Sequence record: PZ379179.1 | Length of the DNA stretch: 39,736 nt | Origin: a phage | Strand: one strand, 5' to 3' | Shown here: in pieces, positions 10,262 to 39,736 of the stretch | Layout of the letters: the number at the start of each line of letters is the position of its first letter | Numbering within the stretch: the first letter of the stretch is position 1 | Program-made: the position numbers and the translations under genes | The notes under the pieces: model-generated | The model's input: the letters and a program-made list of their open reading frames with translations, nothing else | What the model was told of the DNA's origin: nothing | The model's database searches: none

Positions 10262-10485
10262 TGACTCAAGAATTTAAGGTCGTTCGTAAGCGTCTGACCA
10301 TTGATAAAATCCCGGTAGGCTATGCGTTTATCGTCCACGGTAAGCCGGGTGAAGTGTACGTGAAGATTAGTAACTCTCACGTCTTCAACCATAAGTTGCT
10401 CCAGATGCACACCACGGATGCTAACCGCTTCCAACGTCATCTGAACCTCGTAGCTGTAGAGCTGGTGGTGTACGATGGTGAGTAA
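10261..10485 (+). CDS. Hypothetical protein (74 aa) between endonuclease I and lysozyme
   Basis: ATG at 10261 overlaps the upstream stop (TGATG), with AGGAG 7 nt upstream; the track ORF opens at GTG 10258. No T7 gene occupies this position. Confidence 0.5.
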   Translation: MTQEFKVVRKRLTIDKIPVGYAFIVHGKPGEVYVKISNSHVFNHKLLQMHTTDANRFQRHLNLVAVELVVYDGE

Positions 10486-10933
10486 GGTTCAGTTCAACCC
10501 ACGGTCCCTGACTGACGCTATCTTCGTTCACTGTAGCGCAACCAAGCCAGAGATGGACATCGGGGTAGAGACCATCCGTATGTGGCACAAGCAGCAAGGC
10601 TGGCTGGATGTAGGCTACCACTTTATCATCAAGCGTGACGGTACTGTGGAAGAGGGTCGCCCGGTCAATGTCGTAGGGTCACACGTTAAGGACTGGAACT
10701 CCAAGTCCGTAGGCGTCTGCCTTGTAGGTGGCATCAACGCTAAGGGTCAGTTTGAAGCTAACTTCACTCCAGCCCAGATGAACTCCCTGCGCAACAAGCT
10801 GGCTGACCTGAAGGTCCTGTATCCTCAGGCAGAAATCAAAGCACACCATGACGTAGCACCTAAGGCGTGTCCAAGTTTTGACTTGCGATGGTGGCTAGAT
10901 ACCAATGAACTGGTAACTTCCGACCGTGGTTAA
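10475..10933 (+). CDS. Lysozyme / N-acetylmuramoyl-L-alanine amidase (T7 gene 3.5 homolog)
   Basis: 152 aa; DAIFVHCSATKP...WLDVGYHFIIKRDGTVEEGR...GVCLVGG...APKACPSFDL...ELVTSDRG matches T7 lysozyme. Confidence 0.95.
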   Translation: MVSKVQFNPRSLTDAIFVHCSATKPEMDIGVETIRMWHKQQGWLDVGYHFIIKRDGTVEEGRPVNVVGSHVKDWNSKSVGVCLVGGINAKGQFEANFTPAQMNSLRNKLADLKVLYPQAEIKAHHDVAPKACPSFDLRWWLDTNELVTSDRG

Positions 10934-26055: not shown

Positions 26056-26526
26056 ATGTATATTCGCAAGGCTACGGAACAGGATGTCCGCTACTTTCTG
26101 TGGCATCTTTCAGTAGATGACGTTAAGGAATGCAAAGCAAACTACGGGTCAACCGTGGGTCTCTCTGAAAGACTGCTTACGCATCTAACTCCGTCATCTG
26201 TGGTTTTAACTAACTGTGTAGGAGAAGTGTTTGCCTATGGTGGGAACCAAGGTGATAACGTGTGGTTCCTGACTTCCGGTCTTGTCCATAAGCTGAGACC
26301 TAAAGAGAAGAGAGAGTTCATTCAGCGCATCTCTGAGTACAGGGACTTAATGTTAGACCAATACGGGACCATCTGGAACTACGTGTGGTCAGGCAATAAG
26401 TCTCACATTAAATTCTTGAAGTTGCTTGGGGCTAAGTTCCATGATGATTGGACTATCAGCCCGGTAACTGGTGAGCATTTTCAATTATTCACTATCTCTA
26501 AGGAGGACGTATGTGTGAACCCGTAA
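26056..26526 (+). CDS. Internal virion protein A (gp13-like)
   Basis: 156 aa, AAGGAG RBS; precedes gp14 as in T7. Confidence 0.6.
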   Translation: MYIRKATEQDVRYFLWHLSVDDVKECKANYGSTVGLSERLLTHLTPSSVVLTNCVGEVFAYGGNQGDNVWFLTSGLVHKLRPKEKREFIQRISEYRDLMLDQYGTIWNYVWSGNKSHIKFLKLLGAKFHDDWTISPVTGEHFQLFTISKEDVCVNP

Positions 26527-27098
26527 GTATCGGCATGGGTATCATGGCTGTAGCCGGGGCCACTATGTCCGCATCCCAGCAGGCAAAGGCCGAAGGTGCA
26601 GCAATTGACGCTCAGAACCGACAGGCTCAGGAAATGGTTAAGCAGATGAACTACTCTGACGCCAACCTGAGAATGCAGGAGCGAGACCTGAAGGAGCAGC
26701 AGATGGCTGAACTGACAGAGACCACGCTCAACGGTATTCGCAATCAGGGTATGGTACGAGCTGCGGTGGCTGAGTCCGGTCTGGAAGGTAACTCTATGGA
26801 CAGGATTGAACGTCAGGTCGCAGGAGATACAGTCAAGGAGCGAGCAGGGATTACCGAAAGTTACAACCGAGACTATGCGGCTATCTTCGGGAACCGTATC
26901 GCCAACATTGAGAACACCAAGTCTGCTATCCGTGGTCAGGGTAAAATCATCAAGACCAGCCCACTGGCTCATGCACTTAATGTTGCTACCGCCGGGATGC
27001 AAGGTTACGCCGCTGGTAAGTCAATCTCTGGAGCGTCCAGCTCTGGCGGTGCTGCACCAATTAGTGCTGCTAAAGGTACACCTACAGGTCATAGCTAA
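26511..27098 (+). CDS. Internal virion (core) protein B (T7 gp14 homolog)
   Basis: 195 aa; NSMDRIERQVAGDTVKERAGITESYNRDYAAIFGN...ISAAKGTPTG resembles T7 gp14 (SSMDRIKRVTEGQFIREANMVTENYRRDYQAIFAQ...VAAKGTKTG). Confidence 0.85.
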   Translation: MCEPVSIGMGIMAVAGATMSASQQAKAEGAAIDAQNRQAQEMVKQMNYSDANLRMQERDLKEQQMAELTETTLNGIRNQGMVRAAVAESGLEGNSMDRIERQVAGDTVKERAGITESYNRDYAAIFGNRIANIENTKSAIRGQGKIIKTSPLAHALNVATAGMQGYAAGKSISGASSSGGAAPISAAKGTPTGHS

Positions 27099-27109
27099 GA
27101 GGAGGACTA

Positions 27110-29392
27110 ATGGCTAGTAATATTGAATCAGCTCTGGCTAATCGGACTATGGGTCGTGGCAGAGCGCCTGGTAAAACTATAGCCGTCAACTATCAAGCAG
27201 CCAACGTTCAGGCCCCTACTGGTGACTCAGGTCTGGCTCGTGCGTTAACCAACTTCGTTGAGTCTGGGACTGGATTATACAAGCAGTTCAAAGACGATGA
27301 GAAGACACGGGCCGACGAGCGGTCTAACGAGATTATCCGTAAGCTGACACCTCAGCAAAGACGTGAGGCTATCCAGAACGGCACATTGCTGTATCAGGAT
27401 GACCCTTACGCTATGGAAGCACTTCGAGTCAAGACTGGTCGTAATGCTGCCTTTGCGGTGGATGACGAGATTAACGTTAAGATTCAGAACGGTGAGTTCC
27501 GTACACGTCAGGACATGGAAGAGTATCGCCACCAGCGACTTCAGGACGCCGCTAAGTCCTATGCTGAAGAGGCGGGTATTAACCCTACCGATGAGTTCTT
27601 CCAGCGCGGGTTCAACGATAACATCACAGACCGCAACATCGCTATCTATGGGTCTTTCAATAAGTATTTCAGCAAGCAGTCTGAAGAGACAGCAATGTTG
27701 AACACTCGTATTGAGATGAACTCATTCCTGAACGATGGGGACCTGATGCGTTCTCCTGAGTCTGGAAAGACCTTCATGGCCTACCTTCGGGATGGACTAA
27801 CGACTGCTGCTATCCCTTCGGACCAGCGAGCACGAGAGGTCATTACCCAGACGGTCAGTGACGCAATCCAGAAGTCAGGCGGCTCAAACTTCCTACAGCA
27901 AGTACGAGGCGAGCGAATCACCCTTAACGGCGTGGACGCTACAGTCGAAGAGATTGTAGGACCTGATGTCTTCAACGCTGCTATTGTTGAGGCACAAGGA
28001 ACTGAGTACAAGCTGGTGGCTAAGTATCAGGAGGACTTATCGTTAGGCGTTCAGTCTGCGATTCTTCAGGACGACCCAACCATCGGTCTTGCCCAGATTC
28101 AGAAACTCAAGGAGCAGAACAACCTGCTTCAGCCGGGTGAAGAACTCACGCCTCAGCGTCAGATGCTTATTAATGCTGAAGCGAGCTTACTGGAAGCGGT
28201 CAAGCGTAAGTCTGCTGAACAGGCTAAGGAGAACACTAAGTTAATCCAGACTCAGAACAAGCAACTGGTCATTGACCAAGTGTATCAGCGACGTCTGGCT
28301 GGAGACAATGTGTCCACCAACTATGAGGACCTTCCGGTATCAGATGCTACAGGAGAGTTCAAGCGTTCGGACATGAACAACTATGCGTCTTCTAAGCTAC
28401 AGCAGATTGACCATATGGACATCCCTGAGGCTGCTAAGGACGCACAGAAGGTTGCATTATTAAGAGCTGACACTAACAACGGTCCGTTCCGTAATGCCTT
28501 CCAAACGCTTACTCAGGACGCTGCTGGTGAGTGGCAAGCTGCTGTCATCCGTGGACAGTACGACCCAGACAAGATGAAACGCTTCGAGTCTCTTCGTCGT
28601 GCCTACACTCAGGACCCTTCAAGTTTCGCTGCTCTGTATCCTGACCAAGCTCAGTTGTTCTCTACGTTCGACCAGATGGACAAGATGGGTCTGGACCCTC
28701 AGACGATGATTGAAGCTGATAAGCAAGCTGCAAGTCAAAGCCGTGAGATGCGCATGGAGTCAGACAAGGCGTGGCAGGAGTTGAAGAACGACTCTCGGAA
28801 TAAGGACCTTTCGCGTCTTCCTACATCTCTGGACGCAAGTGCTCGTAAGGTCTGGGACTCATGGTACTATCGTACAGGTAACGCTGACGCTGCAACTCAG
28901 CAGACTCAACGCTGGCTGAATGAGAACACCGTAACGTTCCAGTCTGAGGGTTCTGATGGTAAGTCCATAGGCATGGTGTCCAAACACCAGCTTATGGTCG
29001 GGGATAACCCAGAGTCGTGGCAGGTGGGGCGAGACATTATCGACACCGCTCGTAAGCAGCTCATTAAGGCTAACCCTTGGGTAGTGAACTCTCAGTTGTC
29101 CGTTGTTGAACAGAACGGCTCTATCTTCCTCCAAGACGCTACAGGGACTATTCGTATTCGCTACGATAAAGAACTTGTAGGTAAACTCTACCGCGAACAA
29201 CAGCAGAAGGCACAAGATGCCGCATATGCTCAGGCAGAACGTGACGCTAACAAGAGAGCGCGTATCGTCGGGACTAAAGCTGCTGGTGACAAACGTCGAG
29301 CTGACCGAGAGGCCAACATCGAGAAGCGCGGAGGGATGTACAATGACGTCTCACTGGAGGGTATCGCAAACGTACTAATCGGTAAGGAGTAA
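27110..29392 (+). CDS. Internal virion (core) protein C (T7 gp15 homolog)
   Basis: 760 aa; DERSNEIIRKLTPQQRREAIQNGTLLYQDDPYAMEALRVKTGRNAA and IRIRYDKEL align with T7 gp15. Confidence 0.93.
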   Translation: MASNIESALANRTMGRGRAPGKTIAVNYQAANVQAPTGDSGLARALTNFVESGTGLYKQFKDDEKTRADERSNEIIRKLTPQQRREAIQNGTLLYQDDPYAMEALRVKTGRNAAFAVDDEINVKIQNGEFRTRQDMEEYRHQRLQDAAKSYAEEAGINPTDEFFQRGFNDNITDRNIAIYGSFNKYFSKQSEETAMLNTRIEMNSFLNDGDLMRSPESGKTFMAYLRDGLTTAAIPSDQRAREVITQTVSDAIQKSGGSNFLQQVRGERITLNGVDATVEEIVGPDVFNAAIVEAQGTEYKLVAKYQEDLSLGVQSAILQDDPTIGLAQIQKLKEQNNLLQPGEELTPQRQMLINAEASLLEAVKRKSAEQAKENTKLIQTQNKQLVIDQVYQRRLAGDNVSTNYEDLPVSDATGEFKRSDMNNYASSKLQQIDHMDIPEAAKDAQKVALLRADTNNGPFRNAFQTLTQDAAGEWQAAVIRGQYDPDKMKRFESLRRAYTQDPSSFAALYPDQAQLFSTFDQMDKMGLDPQTMIEADKQAASQSREMRMESDKAWQELKNDSRNKDLSRLPTSLDASARKVWDSWYYRTGNADAATQQTQRWLNENTVTFQSEGSDGKSIGMVSKHQLMVGDNPESWQVGRDIIDTARKQLIKANPWVVNSQLSVVEQNGSIFLQDATGTIRIRYDKELVGKLYREQQQKAQDAAYAQAERDANKRARIVGTKAAGDKRRADREANIEKRGGMYNDVSLEGIANVLIGKE

Positions 29393-29396
29393 CATA

Positions 29397-32300
29397 ATGG
29401 CGACTCGTGGTATTCGCAATAACAATCCGGGTAATATCCGGGTAAGTAAGGACCAATGGGAAGGAATGACTGGAGATGATGGCGCATTCGTCACCTTCGA
29501 TAGTCCAGAGTCTGGCGTCCGAGCTTTAGGTAAAAACCTGCTGTCCTACGGTCGCCAAGGTTATGACTCTATCGAGAAGATTATCAACCGATGGGCGCCT
29601 CCTAACGAGAACGACACTAAGGCTTATATTGACTCAGTAGTGGCTGCAACTGGTATTCCAGCTACCCAGAGTCTCGACCTATCGAACCCGGACACCCTGT
29701 CTTCTCTGGCTCAAGCTATTAGCTTCCATGAGACAGGCTCCCGGTACAATCCTGAAGTCTATCAGAAGGGAGTCGAAAGAGCACTTAACGGCATTAGCCC
29801 AAAGACTCCACCAGTAAGCGCTAACGTATTTGACGCACTCACGGAAGGACTCAAGGCTAAACCTAAAGTAGCTCTGGGTGAGAACCTTCCGACCGCTGCT
29901 GGTCTAAACATTGAGGGTCAAGCACCTGAAGCTCCCAACGAATCGTTCGGTGAGATGTTCTATAAGTCTACTGGCGAGACCATGCAGGAACGAGAGGATC
30001 GCTCTACGTGGTTCGGTTTCGGCTCGGCTACAGAAGCTGAAGTGAAGAACTCTATGGTCGGCGTGGCTATCCGCGCTGGTCAGACCGAGGACTCACTTGA
30101 TGTCATTGGCGATGTGTTCAACCCTACCCGCTGGAACAACCATAAGTGGTCTCGTGAGGAGCTGGACCAGATTCGTAACGCTGGAGTTCTCCCTCAGTAT
30201 TACGGTGTCATTACTGGTGGCTCTCCTCAGAACCTGACCGAGCTTATTAACTTGGCGCTTGAGAACCAGAAGTTGGACCAAGAGAAGGCCAAGGCTGGGA
30301 CTGGTGCTCAGCTAGCAGCTGGTGTGATTGGTGCTGGTGTAGACCCGCTGACCTACGTTCCTATCGCTGGACAGGTTGGCAAAGGTGCGAAGCTGGTCAA
30401 CAAGATGTTCGCCGTGGCTGCTCAATCTGGAGCACTTGCTGGTGTATCAGAGATGGCCCGTACCTCAGTGGCTGGTGGGGATGATCATGTGGCTGAAGCT
30501 ATCCTTGGTGGTGCTCTCTTTGGTGCTGGTATGACTACCATCGCTGATGGGTTAGGCAGAGCCTTAGGTCGAAACACTAATGAGTTTGCTGGCCCAGCTA
30601 CACGTCTGGAAGCTCGTGAGACCGCTCGTAACGTTGATGGTCAGGACCTGTCTCGTCTTCCTATTCAGGAAGGTGAGCAGACCTTTAGTCATCAAGGCGT
30701 TAAGTTCGCTGACGTTCAGAACGAGCCGGGTAGTGTACGACTGGAAGATGGTTCAATCCTGATTGGTGAGAACCCTCTGAACCCTAAGACACGTCAAGTC
30801 TTTGACGAAGTGATTGAGCCTGAACGTGCCGCTGCGGGTGTGAACCTTGGTGGGCTGACTGAGATTGGCCTGAAGCTGCTTCGGTCTGAGAACCCTGAGA
30901 TTCGTGGAGTCGCTGCGGACTTAGTGCGTTCACCGACTGGTATGCAGTCCGGGGCCTCAGGTAAAATCGGGACCACTGCGTCAGACGTATTCGAGAGACT
31001 TCGTGCTGTGGACCATCGGTTCTACAACGACATCGACGATGCGGTTACTGAGGCACTAAAGGACCCGTACTTCCAGACAGCATTCTGGCGAGACTCTGGC
31101 GCATTCCGTCAGGACATCTACCAGCGTGTGTCTATGGCTATCGAAGATGGTAGCGGAAACCTGAAGGCTGAACTGACTCCGGGAGAACTGAAAGTCTATG
31201 ACCTACTGAAGAACCAGTTTGACGCCAAGCGTGAGATGATGGAGAACCCAGCGATGTTTGGTCGCCCAGACGCTAAGTCTATCTTTCCGGGCAGCCGCTT
31301 CAAGGGAACATACGTCCCGCATGTGTATAGCAACCAGATGAAGGAGCTGTACATCAAGGAGCTTGGGAGGCCAGAGGCACTACAGGAGGCCATCAAGAAG
31401 TCATGGTTGACCAGCTATGCGTCTCGACCTGAAGTCAAGAAACGTGTGGACGAGGCACTCTTAGAGGCTGACCCTACGTTGACTCCAGAAGGACTTGCGG
31501 CTGCGGTCGATAAGTACGCCAACGATAAGGCTTATGGTATCTCTCACACCGAGCAGTTCGAGCGTTCATCCATAATGGAAGAGAACATCAATGGTCTGGT
31601 GGGTCTGGAGAACAACAGCTTCCTTGAGGCTCGTAACCTGTTCGATAGCGATATGTCAATCGTCCTACCTAACGGTCAGACCTTCAGTGTCAACAACCTG
31701 CGTGAGTGGGACATGGACAAGATTGTCCCGGCCTACAACCGTCGAGTTAATGGCGATATTGCTATCATGGCTGGTACAGGCAAGACCACGAAGGACATGA
31801 AGGACTTGGTTGAGACCCTGATGAACAAGGCTGGGGATGACGGTAAGTTGAAAGGTGAAGTATCTACCTTACGTGGCACTTTGAAGATTCTAACTGGTCG
31901 TGCTCGACGTGATGGTGCTGATGATGCGGCCTTCGCTACCGTGATGCGCACAATGACAGACCTATCGTTCTTCGCTAAGAATGCCTACATGGGTGTTCAG
32001 AACTTAACGGAGATTGGTGGTATGCTGGCTCGTGGTAACGTTCGTGCAATGCTTCATGGAGTCCCAATTTTCCGTGACCTAGCATTCCGTAACAAGAAGG
32101 TTGGGGCCTCAGAGATTAAGGACCTGCACAATGTTATCTTCGGTAAGGAACTGGATGACTCAATCCGTCCGTCTAAACAGGATGTCATTGACCGTCTGCG
32201 ATCTTACAGTGACCTCGGTCGTGGTACAGCTACAGCTCTTGGGACTGCCAAGTATTACACTGGCGAACTTGCAGTACGCTCTCCGTTCACTAAAGTCCTC

Positions 32301-33284
32301 AACGGTACGACCAACTACCTGTTAGATGCTGGACGTCAAGGCTTCCTGTCTGACATCGTGGAGCACAGCCTGACTGGTAGTAAGCGTAAGTTCGATGACC
32401 GCTGGCTGAAGACCGCTGGTATCTCTGACGAGCAGTGGAAGGGCATTAAGTCCCTAATCCGTGAGTCAGTGACTCGTGGTCCAGACGGGAAGTACACCAT
32501 CAAGGATAAGAAGGCGTTCAGTCAGGACCCAAGGGCTATGGACCTGTGGCGTATGGGTGACACCATCGCTGACGAAACGTTACTCCGGCCCCACAAGCTG
32601 TCAAACATGGACGCCAAGGCTTATGGTCCTCTCGCTAAGACTGTCCTTCAGTTTAAGAACTTCGTCATCAAGTCTATCAATGGGAGAACCATGCGAACCT
32701 TCTATAACGCCACGAAGAACAACAGAGCGATTGACGCTGCACTGTCGACCGTGATGTCTATGGGTCTGGCTGGTATCTACTACATGGCTCAGGCGCATGT
32801 CAAGGCTTATGCTATGCAGGATGGTCGAGACCGTGACTACCTTAAGCAAGCTCTGGACCCAACGATGATTGGCTATGCGGTCCTGTCCCGTAGTTCACAT
32901 CTTGGTGGCCCACTTGGGGTAGCTAACATTCTGGGGGGCATCGCTGGGTATGAGGACACTAAGATGCTCCGTTCGTCTATCCTACCTCGTTCGCCTACAG
33001 AGAAGCCTGAGCGTGCCATCGCGTATGGTGCAGCTACAAGTGACCCTGTGATGAATGTTGTTGGTAACTTCTTGGAGCAGGTTCCAGCTTTCGGATATGC
33101 TGCTAACGTTGGCGCTTCGGCTTACAACTTGGCTGGCTACCTCAAGGCTGATACTCGTGTCAACGAGCGTGACTACATGACCGGGATGTATAATACGTTC
33201 CGTGAACTGGTTCCGAACGACCCAATTACCCAGAAGCTGCTGCTTGGAACGTTTGAGGAGCAAGGCATCCACATCAAGGACTAA
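29397..33284 (+). CDS. Internal virion protein D (T7 gp16 homolog) with divergent N-terminal domain
   Basis: 1295 aa; from about residue 200 collinear with T7 gp16 (TWFGFGSATEAE, RWN.H.W..EELD.IR, GVDPLTYVP, MRLEARETARN, SPTGMQSGASGK, GTYVPHVY, NNSFLEARNLFDSD). The first ~130 aa (MATRGIRNNNPGNIR...) do not resemble the T7 lytic-transglycosylase N-terminus as I recall it. Confidence 0.93.
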   Translation: MATRGIRNNNPGNIRVSKDQWEGMTGDDGAFVTFDSPESGVRALGKNLLSYGRQGYDSIEKIINRWAPPNENDTKAYIDSVVAATGIPATQSLDLSNPDTLSSLAQAISFHETGSRYNPEVYQKGVERALNGISPKTPPVSANVFDALTEGLKAKPKVALGENLPTAAGLNIEGQAPEAPNESFGEMFYKSTGETMQEREDRSTWFGFGSATEAEVKNSMVGVAIRAGQTEDSLDVIGDVFNPTRWNNHKWSREELDQIRNAGVLPQYYGVITGGSPQNLTELINLALENQKLDQEKAKAGTGAQLAAGVIGAGVDPLTYVPIAGQVGKGAKLVNKMFAVAAQSGALAGVSEMARTSVAGGDDHVAEAILGGALFGAGMTTIADGLGRALGRNTNEFAGPATRLEARETARNVDGQDLSRLPIQEGEQTFSHQGVKFADVQNEPGSVRLEDGSILIGENPLNPKTRQVFDEVIEPERAAAGVNLGGLTEIGLKLLRSENPEIRGVAADLVRSPTGMQSGASGKIGTTASDVFERLRAVDHRFYNDIDDAVTEALKDPYFQTAFWRDSGAFRQDIYQRVSMAIEDGSGNLKAELTPGELKVYDLLKNQFDAKREMMENPAMFGRPDAKSIFPGSRFKGTYVPHVYSNQMKELYIKELGRPEALQEAIKKSWLTSYASRPEVKKRVDEALLEADPTLTPEGLAAAVDKYANDKAYGISHTEQFERSSIMEENINGLVGLENNSFLEARNLFDSDMSIVLPNGQTFSVNNLREWDMDKIVPAYNRRVNGDIAIMAGTGKTTKDMKDLVETLMNKAGDDGKLKGEVSTLRGTLKILTGRARRDGADDAAFATVMRTMTDLSFFAKNAYMGVQNLTEIGGMLARGNVRAMLHGVPIFRDLAFRNKKVGASEIKDLHNVIFGKELDDSIRPSKQDVIDRLRSYSDLGRGTATALGTAKYYTGELAVRSPFTKVLNGTTNYLLDAGRQGFLSDIVEHSLTGSKRKFDDRWLKTAGISDEQWKGIKSLIRESVTRGPDGKYTIKDKKAFSQDPRAMDLWRMGDTIADETLLRPHKLSNMDAKAYGPLAKTVLQFKNFVIKSINGRTMRTFYNATKNNRAIDAALSTVMSMGLAGIYYMAQAHVKAYAMQDGRDRDYLKQALDPTMIGYAVLSRSSHLGGPLGVANILGGIAGYEDTKMLRSSILPRSPTEKPERAIAYGAATSDPVMNVVGNFLEQVPAFGYAANVGASAYNLAGYLKADTRVNERDYMTGMYNTFRELVPNDPITQKLLLGTFEEQGIHIKD

Positions 33285-33348: not shown

Positions 33349-35529
33349 ATGTCCACGATTACACAATTCCCTTCAGGAAACACTCAGTACAGGATTGAGT
33401 TCGACTACCTAGCCAGAACGTTTGTTGTTGTTACGCTGGTGAATAGCTCTAACCCTACCCTGAACCGTGTACTGGAAGTTGGTCGAGATTACCGATTCCT
33501 TAATCCAACGATGATTGAGATGTTGGCTGACCAATCAGGTTTCGACATCGTTCGTATTCACCGTCAGACTGGAACTGACTTAGTGGTAGACTTCAGGAAT
33601 GGCTCAGTGTTGACGGCTAGTGACCTGACAAATTCAGAGCTTCAGGCTATCCATATTGCAGAAGAAGGTCGAGACCAAACGGTTGACTTAGCGAAGGAAT
33701 ATGCCGATGCTGCTGGTAGCTCTGCTGGCAACGCTAAGGATAGCGAGGACGAAGCACGCCGAATCGCTGCGAGTATCAAGGCAGCTGGTAAAATTGGCTA
33801 TATTACCCGTCGCTCCTTCGAGAAAGGCTTCAACGTTACAACATGGAACGAGGTCCTGCTATGGGAAGAGGATGGTGATTATTACCGCTGGGATGGTACA
33901 CTTCCAAAGAACGTTCCCGCTGGTTCAACTCCTGAATCATCTGGTGGTATTGGGCTGAGTGCGTGGGTTAGTGTTGGGGATGCGTCACTTAGAGCAAACC
34001 TGTCTGATAGTGATGGCGCTAAATACATAGGCAGTGGAGAAAGGACATTACTTGAGCACAGCAATGATGTTTTGCACTCAAAAGACTTTCCAACACTGCA
34101 GGCAGCTATAGATGCATCTTTGCAAAAAAATGATCTACTGGTGTCTCCTGGCAATTATACTGAAAAAGTTACTATTGGAAACGCGCAGTTAAAAGGTGTT
34201 GGCGGGGCCGCGGTACTAAAAACTCCGGCAGACTTTACAAACACTGTTCAGGTTAATTTAGCTACACCTCATTGGCAATTCCGCCATAGTGGTGGTTTTG
34301 CTATAGATGGTTCCGGGACAACCGGAGCCGTAGGTATTAGTTTTGACCCGTCAGACCAATATTCCGGACGTCATAATTTTAGTGATGTATACATCCACAA
34401 CATCAACAAGGCCCTTCAGAAGCCTTCCGGGAACATCGGCAATACTTGGAGAAATATTGGGATATCTACGTGTGATTGGGGGTATTACGCGATTAGTGGC
34501 TCAGAGACGCATTGCGGGGCCGATACCCTCTACAATATCCACTTCGATGGCATCTCCACCTATGCAGTCTATCTAGACGGCACTGTCGATAATGGCGGGG
34601 TGGGCGCATGGTGGCTTAAAGACTCCATTATTGAGGCTTCCGGAGGTGGCGGGATATACTTAAAAAGTAAATCGGGCGACTGTCCTACATCTCCATGCGG
34701 GGTATCCAATATATGGATGGAAGCTATCGCAACATCACCGGCTGTTCAGGTAGACGGCGTGGCGCAAAAACCGCGAGTTCTCAAGTTGGTAGACACAGCG
34801 ATATTCTTTGCTGAGTATTCTTATCTCAACAACATCGAGCTATCCAACTCCAACTTAGTAACTTATGGTTGCCGTTTTGACAACGCTGATGGCAATCAGG
34901 ATATTGTCGTGGATGCACAAAGTACCATTGTAGCCCATGACGTGTATTTAAACGGCAGTTCTGGAAAGGACGTTATTGTGGAGTCCGTAGCATCGCAATC
35001 TGCAACGATAGCTGCCACAAACTTATCTCTGAGGGGCAACTTAACAAGAGGGAGAGTATTTAATACGCCGACAGGGAATAAATTAATGGCTATCACATTT
35101 GACTCAGGTAGCCATTATTTTTCTGGCAGCGGCACCGTTAACGGTTCGACTGTATCTGACGGACTTCACTCCGCTACATGTACCGAATTTTCATTCCCCG
35201 GAGCCGGTTTATATGAAATGGGAGCGACAAGAACAGCCATTACATCCGGTAGATGGTACGTGTGGGGAGTTAACTCACGCCTACAATCTGGCTCGGCGGA
35301 TATTAGTATAACGTCAGGTATTACCATGGGTAGTGTTTACACAAAGCCGGGGGAGTGGATTAGCACTTTCGGTGTAGGAAAGGCATCTACCACTGGCACT
35401 GTAGCGCTATACGTTTCCACAGGAGGAGGTTCGGGAGCTACGGTCAGATTCAGTGACTTTTTCATCGCTGAGTTTACGACGCAAGCTCAGGCTTTAGCTT
35501 TCGCCAATTCAAGGATGTCGTTATCATAA
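33349..35529 (+). CDS. Tail fibre / tailspike: T7 gp17-like N-terminal anchor fused to a beta-helix (depolymerase-like) C-terminal domain
   Basis: 726 aa; N-terminus (EFDYLARTFVVVTLVN, DYRF, LVVDFRNGSVLTASDL, AIHIAEEGRDQTV) matches the T7 gp17 tail-attachment domain. From about nt 34000 codon usage becomes AT-rich and the protein shows Gly/Asn/Ser-rich repeats typical of right-handed beta-helix tailspikes. Confidence 0.9.
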   Translation: MSTITQFPSGNTQYRIEFDYLARTFVVVTLVNSSNPTLNRVLEVGRDYRFLNPTMIEMLADQSGFDIVRIHRQTGTDLVVDFRNGSVLTASDLTNSELQAIHIAEEGRDQTVDLAKEYADAAGSSAGNAKDSEDEARRIAASIKAAGKIGYITRRSFEKGFNVTTWNEVLLWEEDGDYYRWDGTLPKNVPAGSTPESSGGIGLSAWVSVGDASLRANLSDSDGAKYIGSGERTLLEHSNDVLHSKDFPTLQAAIDASLQKNDLLVSPGNYTEKVTIGNAQLKGVGGAAVLKTPADFTNTVQVNLATPHWQFRHSGGFAIDGSGTTGAVGISFDPSDQYSGRHNFSDVYIHNINKALQKPSGNIGNTWRNIGISTCDWGYYAISGSETHCGADTLYNIHFDGISTYAVYLDGTVDNGGVGAWWLKDSIIEASGGGGIYLKSKSGDCPTSPCGVSNIWMEAIATSPAVQVDGVAQKPRVLKLVDTAIFFAEYSYLNNIELSNSNLVTYGCRFDNADGNQDIVVDAQSTIVAHDVYLNGSSGKDVIVESVASQSATIAATNLSLRGNLTRGRVFNTPTGNKLMAITFDSGSHYFSGSGTVNGSTVSDGLHSATCTEFSFPGAGLYEMGATRTAITSGRWYVWGVNSRLQSGSADISITSGITMGSVYTKPGEWISTFGVGKASTTGTVALYVSTGGGSGATVRFSDFFIAEFTTQAQALAFANSRMSLS

Positions 35530-39575: not shown

Positions 39576-39736
39576 CCTCAAGTCTCCCCATAGGCCCTCT
39601 TTAAGTCAAGACCAAAGGCCCTACCCATAGACCTTCGGTCTAAACTTCAGGTCATTGACTCAAGGTTGACCAAAAGTCATGACGATAGGTCTAGGCTATG
39701 GCTTAGGGAAGGACGATAGGTAGGGACTATTGGTCT
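39576..39736. repeat. Right direct terminal repeat (161 bp)
   Basis: Identical to bases 1-161. Confidence 0.9.

Follow-up and report, generated by a model that had tools for sequence, protein, structure and literature searches.

The locus analysed here encodes a homolog of gp16, an ejected core protein that in phage T7 carries a small muralytic domain at its N terminus, and the question it raises is which module occupies that position in a protein that otherwise follows T7 closely. The answer bears on how the cell wall would be opened during genome delivery and on how several hundred database records for such proteins should be labelled.

The gp16 gene and its junction with T7 homology

The window, meaning the whole 39,736-bp stretch of phage DNA that was analysed (PZ379179.1), has exact direct repeats of 161 bp at both termini and is therefore probably a complete phage genome, that of a Kayfunavirus. 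Its structural block runs in the order gp12, gp13, gp14, gp15, gp16, gp17, which is the T7 order and agrees with the annotation of Escherichia phage vB_EcoA_ASO2B (Kayfunavirus, K1F-like). The gp16 gene (Table 1) has 96.9% nucleotide identity to the gene for "internal virion protein D" of that phage, and close relatives of it are found in more than 240 phage records. The encoded protein matches phrog_342 over its full length (E 0, PHROG profiles) and the T7 gp16 structures 7eyb and 6yt5 (E 0). A near-identical 1295-residue protein, "Gp29", is present as chain 9vvp_L in a solved structure released on 2025-11-12 under the title "Core proteins of the bacteriophage E1004". The deposited chain begins with the same residues, MATRGIRNNN, in agreement with the start assigned here. 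The near-identical chains of 9VVP and the title of that entry suggest, indirectly, that the window gp16 belongs to the virion core.

The alignment with T7 divides the protein into a conserved body, a diverged linker and a dissimilar N terminus (Table 1). Residues 155–1314 of T7 gp16 (7eyb_I) are collinear with residues 128–1294 of the window protein (E = 0), as the sequence-only reading had proposed for everything beyond the first 130 or so residues, and the body is 55% identical to T7 across 1084 aligned positions. Its companion claim, that those first residues are unlike the T7 N terminus, also held. Residues 1–127 show 19% identity to T7, which is noise level, and BLASTP of residues 1–150 against T7 gp16 residues 1–180 returned E 0.65. 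Residues 1–180 of T7 gp16 match the Pfam SLT family (PF01464) with E 3.7e-31, whereas residues 1–150 of the window protein matched nothing in Pfam at E ≤ 0.1 and did not match SLT even at E ≤ 1. Pfam and NCBIfam scans of the N terminus and of the whole window protein returned no family. The domain boundary lies at about residue 127/128 (nt 29777/29778); the region first marked as dissimilar, 29397–29800, thus had the correct start and an end placed slightly too far downstream. In T7, the transglycosylase domain comprises residues 1–156 and the gp15-binding "molecular tape" residues 157–228 (PMC8954989). The junction in the window protein coincides with the end of the former and the start of the latter and, as read from the aligned sequences, appears to be a clean domain-for-domain replacement.

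Table 1. Features of the gp14–gp16 region and the separate amidase gene, in positions of the window; region identities are from a multiple alignment of eleven gp16 proteins
Feature	Positions	Strand	Basis and remarks
N-acetylmuramoyl-L-alanine amidase, T7 gp3.5-type	10475..10933	+	Pfam Amidase_2, E 1.5e-15
gp14 homolog (internal virion protein B)	26511..27098	+	ORF, ASO2B synteny
gp15 homolog (internal virion protein C, periplasmic tunnel partner), 760 aa	27110..29392	+	ORF, synteny, ASO2B annotation
Shine-Dalgarno-like AAGGAG	29384..29389	+	read from sequence; 7 nt upstream of ATG 29397
gp15 stop codon TAA	29390–29392	+	directly after AAGGAG, before the gp16 ATG
gp16 homolog (internal virion protein D, inner-membrane DNA ejectosome component), 1295 aa	29397..33284	+	starts MATRGIRNNNPGNIRVSKDQWEGM
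Putative N-terminal muralytic domain, aa 1–127, PM2 structural protein P5/Enc34 endolysin type (PHA02564)	29397..29777	+	occupies the T7 SLT position
Motif GIRNNNPGNIR, aa 5–15	29409..29441	+	signature in the family alignment
Trp66 (RWAPP), equivalent to Enc34 Trp79, substrate groove	29592..29594	+	alignment; nearly invariant in the family; role from PMC8943055
Tyr77, equivalent to Enc34 Tyr95	29625..29627	+	alignment; invariant in the family
Glu112 (HETGS), equivalent to the proposed catalytic Glu131 of Enc34	29730..29732	+	alignment; invariant in the family
Linker, aa 128–200	29778..29996	+	T7 homology resumes; 31% identity; corresponds to the T7 "molecular tape"
Conserved gp16 body, aa 201–1295	29997..33284	+	identity: T7 55%, Dev2 94%, Minipunavirus 50–51%

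Family, predicted fold and signature residues of the N-terminal domain

Among the profile and sequence searches, only those against PHROGs and PDB sequences identified the N-terminal domain. [quoted passage not shown] At E ≤ 1e-3, 894 homologs of the window domain were found. The same module of about 130 residues also lies inside six other PHROG families, which are annotated as endolysin, head protein, tape measure protein, "tail injection transglycosylase" or unknown. An AlphaFold2 model of residues 1–150, computed with 34 homologs, has a mean pLDDT of 86 and consists of a small hairpin and five helices; it conforms to the family fold, in which the proposed catalytic Glu lies on the last helix but one, so that the window domain is predicted to be all-helical with a circularly permuted lysozyme-like arrangement. 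No GH23/SLT structure occurs among the top 60 structural matches to this model. Profile searching and structure prediction of residues 1–150 had been suggested as the means of checking the swap, and both led to the P5/Enc34-type family and not to a divergent family-1 lytic transglycosylase.

The family to which the domain belongs is PHA02564. Its members have the α-lobe of a lysozyme-like fold with a permuted order of helices: the helix bearing Glu131 is the last in the Enc34 core and the first in GH73 and GH23 enzymes (PMC8943055). The proposed catalytic residue Glu131 forms a conserved trio with Trp79 and Tyr95, and the isolated Enc34 catalytic domain lyses outer-membrane-permeabilised Escherichia coli, Pseudomonas aeruginosa and Hafnia alvei in turbidity assays (PMC8943055). 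In the 34-sequence alignment, the residues G5, I6, R7, N8, N9, N10, G12, N13, I14 and R15 of the signature motif are invariant and P11 is nearly so. All three residues of the Enc34 trio have counterparts in the window domain, namely Trp66, Tyr77 and Glu112, the last being the sole invariant Glu of the family. The copies are not uniform around these positions. The residue after Glu112 is Asn in at least 90% of the family but Thr113 in both the window protein and Dev2 (the segment reads HETG in the window and HENG in Enc34), and the alignment places Tyr at the position of Trp66 in Minipunavirus gp16. The "KRKAADGS" and "KKNGVV" loops are insertions in Enc34 that the window domain lacks. A further difference from the Enc34 endolysin and from M4Lys, a related endolysin from Salmonella phage BSPM4, is that the window copy forms the N terminus of a 1295-residue ejected core protein.

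Virion-borne members of the family are also known. The structural protein P5 of PM2 (PMC9502842) and GP11 of NO16 (PMC13552765) are virion proteins of non-tailed phages and belong to the same domain family. These Vinavirales proteins resemble the window domain in family, in virion location and, presumably, in use at entry. They differ in that they are small, either stand-alone or associated with a membrane, and come from icosahedral phages that contain a membrane, whereas the window copy is fused to a podovirus ejectosome subunit.

One muropeptide study is the sole basis for the bond specificity of the family. Mass spectrometry of muropeptides treated with M4Lys showed loss of GlcNAc, which its authors read as N-acetylglucosaminidase activity (PMC7143992). 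The same study raises the possibility of an additional endopeptidase activity, and the legend of its figure contradicts itself (PMC7143992); for the Enc34 domain, substrate complexes were unobtainable for its authors (PMC8943055). From the M4Lys muropeptide data and GH73-like structural neighbours, the window domain is probably a hydrolytic N-acetylglucosaminidase and not a lytic transglycosylase.

Taken together, we regard residues 1–127 of the window gp16 as a virion-associated peptidoglycan glycosidase of the PM2-P5/Enc34 type that replaces SLT, and we assign this reading a probability of roughly four in five. The proposal that a peptidoglycan-degrading module has been swapped onto the ejected core protein gains support, at the level of the sequence, from the match to 7Q47 and the P5 family and from W66, Y77 and E112.

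Proposed activity at entry and competing explanations

By analogy with T7, gp16 would form part of the internal core of the virion and leave through the tail when the phage infects a cell. The N-terminal domain would then refold in the periplasm beside the gp15 tunnel and cut the murein sacculus locally, which would allow the gp15–gp16 tunnel to reach the inner membrane. For T7, the ejection and murein-opening steps are described in PMC8954989, with Moak and Molineux 2000 and 2004 as cited there. Likenesses to T7 gp16 (PDB 7EYB, 7K5C, 6YT5) extend to the collinear body, the gp14-gp15-gp16-gp17 order and the presence of a small N-terminal muralytic domain. The difference lies in the enzyme, which in T7 is of the Pfam SLT/GH23 type with catalytic E37 and in the window of the P5/Enc34 type with E112.

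One alternative is that the domain is mainly structural, forming the "wings" of the gp15–gp16 tunnel in the periplasm, and that its catalytic activity in gp16 is weak or absent. Under standard conditions, T7 can do without its lytic transglycosylase activity (Moak and Molineux 2000, summarised in PMC8954989), and both Thr113, in place of the nearly invariant Asn beside the catalytic Glu, and the change of Trp66 to Tyr in Minipunavirus speak for this reading. We nevertheless consider this explanation unlikely. The gp16 copies differ by about 55–60% between genera and still keep E112, Y77, the GIRNNNxGNIR motif and other family-invariant positions, the pattern expected from selection on catalysis and not on the fold alone.

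A second alternative holds that no module was exchanged and that the N terminus is the ancestral T7-type SLT domain (a GH23 family-1 lytic transglycosylase) diverged past recognition. The window domain has the same position as the T7 domain and a similar size, and the Enc34 authors argue for a very distant common ancestry of the fold with GH73 and GH23 (PMC8943055). For a direct comparison, the family alignment was set against SLT-type gp16 N termini from seven phages in six genera. The hhalign probability was 0.4% (E 0.16), and this non-significant match, the only one returned, aligns a "P..xI.A.A..L" helix of both profiles. Residues of the SLT signature are invariant in the seven phages (E37-S38, G52/Q55 and Y108-N109-Q110-G111), but the corresponding motifs E-S, G-x-M-Q and A-Y-N-x-G are absent from window residues 1–127. 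The invariant Glu is residue 112 of 127 in the window domain and residue 37 of about 156 in T7, an arrangement that fits the permuted order of helices described for Enc34 and, at the level of the sequence, speaks directly against a diverged SLT. Identities point the same way: the window domain is 50–59% identical to stand-alone P5-type proteins and 12–23% identical to any gp16 SLT domain, whereas the bodies of the same SLT-type gp16 proteins are 35–56% identical to that of the window. An SLT identity was rejected on the Pfam, hhalign, motif and structural-match results, and divergence from SLT is highly improbable.

It is just as improbable that the domain is a late lysis endolysin and not an entry enzyme: the same family supplies bona fide endolysins in Enc34, BSPM4 and Chi-like phages, and probably D3112 orf21, but the window domain is covalently part of a 1295-residue core protein that is packaged in the capsid (judging from the 9VVP title), carries neither a signal sequence nor a transmembrane anchor, and shares its genome with a separate T7 gp3.5-type amidase, presumably the lysis enzyme of this phage, and an Rz-like spanin gene. 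Because these two genes are present, the gp16 N-terminal domain is not needed for lysis, and an identity as lysis endolysin was rejected on this ground.

If the domain is an active glycosidase, as preferred here, its chemistry probably differs from that of T7, a non-hydrolytic transglycosylase being replaced by what, by analogy with its relatives, would be a hydrolytic glycosidase. SLT enzymes are non-hydrolytic lytic transglycosylases that require a free MurNAc C6-OH and yield 1,6-anhydro-muropeptides, and O-acetylation of MurNAc is found in Proteeae such as Morganella and Providencia. It is conceivable, though doubtful, that the swap was adaptive, in that a hydrolytic N-acetylglucosaminidase might bypass host features that block transglycosylases or lysozymes. 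Speculative candidates for such features are MurNAc O-acetylation in Proteeae, the hosts of Minipunavirus, and periplasmic inhibitors of transglycosylases or lysozymes. Were this so, the domain would be a determinant of host range or condition range and not a neutral replacement.

Distribution, history and annotation of the domain

The domain is widespread. When 1.84 billion cluster representatives were searched with the family profile, 17,813 proteins matched at E ≤ 1e-3, 3,315 of them at E ≤ 1e-30. The domain occurs alone, in proteins of about 130–240 residues, or at the N terminus, in the middle or at the C terminus of proteins of 500–1400 residues, and many of the large phage proteins that carry it are annotated as virion proteins. 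In the phage collection, it is present in 753 records and the T7-type SLT N terminus in 1,223. Carriers include gp16 of Kayfunavirus and of Minipunavirus (the latter being Morganella and Providencia phages), D3112 orf21 (annotated "similar to PM2 P5"), Chi-like endolysins and a tape measure protein from a Bordetella phage. In the epsilon15-like phage SPN1S, a copy that is 55% identical to that of the window lies at an internal position of a 937-residue "minor structural protein".

Shuffling of lysins among podovirus ejection proteins is well documented, with K1E/K1-5 gp35 and phiKMV/Ar-KM gp42 as examples, and in a survey of 205 Autographivirales genomes, 86 of the 127 identifiable lysin domains were located at the N terminus of a gp16-like protein. 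The gp15-like C-terminal lysozyme of phiKMV/Ar-KM, K1E/K1-5 gp35, SP6 gp36 and the SPN1S minor structural protein share with the window gp16 a peptidoglycan-cutting module on an ejected internal protein, the identity and position of which are shuffled between lineages. They differ from it in the host protein or the position of the module and, in phiKMV, K1-5 and SP6, in the enzyme family as well.

Among the genera sampled, SLT-type gp16 N termini were found in Teseptimavirus, Przondovirus, Elunavirus, Berlinvirus, Ghunavirus and the more distant Wuhanvirus, and P5-type N termini in Kayfunavirus and Minipunavirus. As the sampled outgroups carry SLT, parsimony suggests that SLT is ancestral and that the P5-type domain is derived in the lineage or lineages leading to the latter two genera. 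A single exchange for both is favoured and two exchanges are possible. The P5-type N terminus of Minipunavirus gp16 is 40–46% identical to that of the window; in the domain tree, the gp16 copies of both genera group together with moderate support (68% bootstrap), and they are each other's best gp16-type matches. The identity of the window domain to that of SPN1S is nominally higher (55%) than its identity to that of Minipunavirus (45%). In the neighbour-joining tree of gp16 bodies, the deep nodes, on which a sister relationship of the two genera would depend, have bootstrap values of only 17–28. The GC content of the module (0.50, against 0.52 for the rest of the gp16 gene) lies within about one SD of 381-nt windows over gp15–gp16 (0.517 ± 0.016), and neither GC nor GC3 of the module, compared with the remaining gp16 gene, shows a trace of recent acquisition. 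Since its composition matches that of the remaining gene, the domain was not acquired recently.

The change at the gp16 N terminus is genuine but unremarkable, a module swap that draws on an enzyme family characterised before; it will not surprise phage specialists, and its main value is the correction of annotation. Hundreds of gp16 records from Kayfunavirus and Minipunavirus bear the name "peptidoglycan lytic exotransglycosylase" or "transglycosylase", which was inherited from T7, and the label "lytic exotransglycosylase" that GenBank gives these proteins is probably wrong. A 2025 survey reported no detectable domain in the 1295-residue internal virion proteins of LNA3, LNA5, SHAK7854 and SHAK9454 (PMC12031403); the close relatives of the window gp16 found here include those of LNA3 and SHAK7854. 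In the literature searched, no earlier assignment of the Kayfunavirus gp16 N terminus to the P5/Enc34 family was found; the E1004 structure paper lay outside that search and may describe the domain. The P5/Enc34 assignment corrects the gp16 labels and fills the gap left by the 2025 survey. It also provides a clean case of ejectosome mosaicism: one enzyme family has given way to another, yet the position and the junction, at the start of the "molecular tape", are preserved. The SLT domain of T7 and the P5 domain of K1F-type phages, on otherwise collinear proteins, form a natural pair with which the part played by murein-cleavage chemistry in genome delivery may be tested.

Domain copies in other proteins and the residue beside Glu112

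The muralytic P5/Enc34-type domain carried by the window gp16 also occurs in Salmonella phage SPN1S (Uetakevirus, an epsilon15-like podovirus), where it lies internally, at about residues 367-479 of a minor structural protein. The two domains are 55% identical, placing the SPN1S copy nominally nearer to the window domain than the copy in Minipunavirus gp16. SPN1S is a possible donor or sister lineage. The domain profile matches a metagenomic protein of 762 aa, P0121, at four separate places (E 6e-106), suggesting that this muralytic domain is tandemly arrayed within one polypeptide.

Thr113 of the window gp16 adjoins the proposed catalytic Glu112 in an HETGS motif, and Thr at this position is shared with Cronobacter phage Dev2. 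Asn occupies the equivalent position (HENG/QENG) in at least 90% of P5/Enc34 family members, Minipunavirus gp16 and Hafnia phage Enc34 among them.

Features of the window and of compared phage loci
Feature	Position	Strand	Description
Direct repeat	1-161; 39576-39736		Exact copies
Thr113 codon of gp16	29733-29735		
gp17 homolog	33349-35529	+	Tailspike, 726 aa; PF03906 and PF18668 matches
SPN1S minor structural protein	L012:2900-5713		937 aa
VB_Ship_A7 gp16	L008:4201-8835		Annotated 4935 nt (about 1645 aa)

Annotation of gp16 in public records

The name "peptidoglycan lytic exotransglycosylase" or "transglycosylase" is given to gp16 of the P5/Enc34 type in many GenBank records; one record has "endo-type membrane-bound chitopentaose" (matched examples are MT496969, OR228483, MN518893, and MW358931). 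The domain actually present gives no support to the T7-derived transglycosylase labels. The gp16 genes of PV615262.1 ("Acinetobacter phage vB_Aba_01KA") and LC799501.1 ("Morganella phage MopsHU1") match those of E. coli Kayfunavirus at 95-97% nucleotide identity; Acinetobacter and Morganella host attributions are unexpected for relatives this close. The gp16 annotated in Shigella phage VB_Ship_A7 (Berlinvirus) is longer than the other gp16 proteins, which have about 1300-1390 aa. No stop codon was found in its 1545 translated codons, and the extra length could reflect fusion to a downstream gene or a sequencing frameshift.

Genome ends and the tailspike

The same 161 bases stand at both ends of the window, which suggests a complete linear genome of the T7 type, bounded by terminal repeats. 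In the window gp17 homolog, a T7 tail-fibre N-terminal adaptor (PF03906) precedes the Tail_spike_N TSP1/Gp66 domain (PF18668). In Escherichia phage vB_EcoA_ASO2B, whose gp16 is the most similar, a 1064-aa K1F-like endosialidase takes the place of this tailspike; exchange of the receptor-binding module was therefore independent of gp16.
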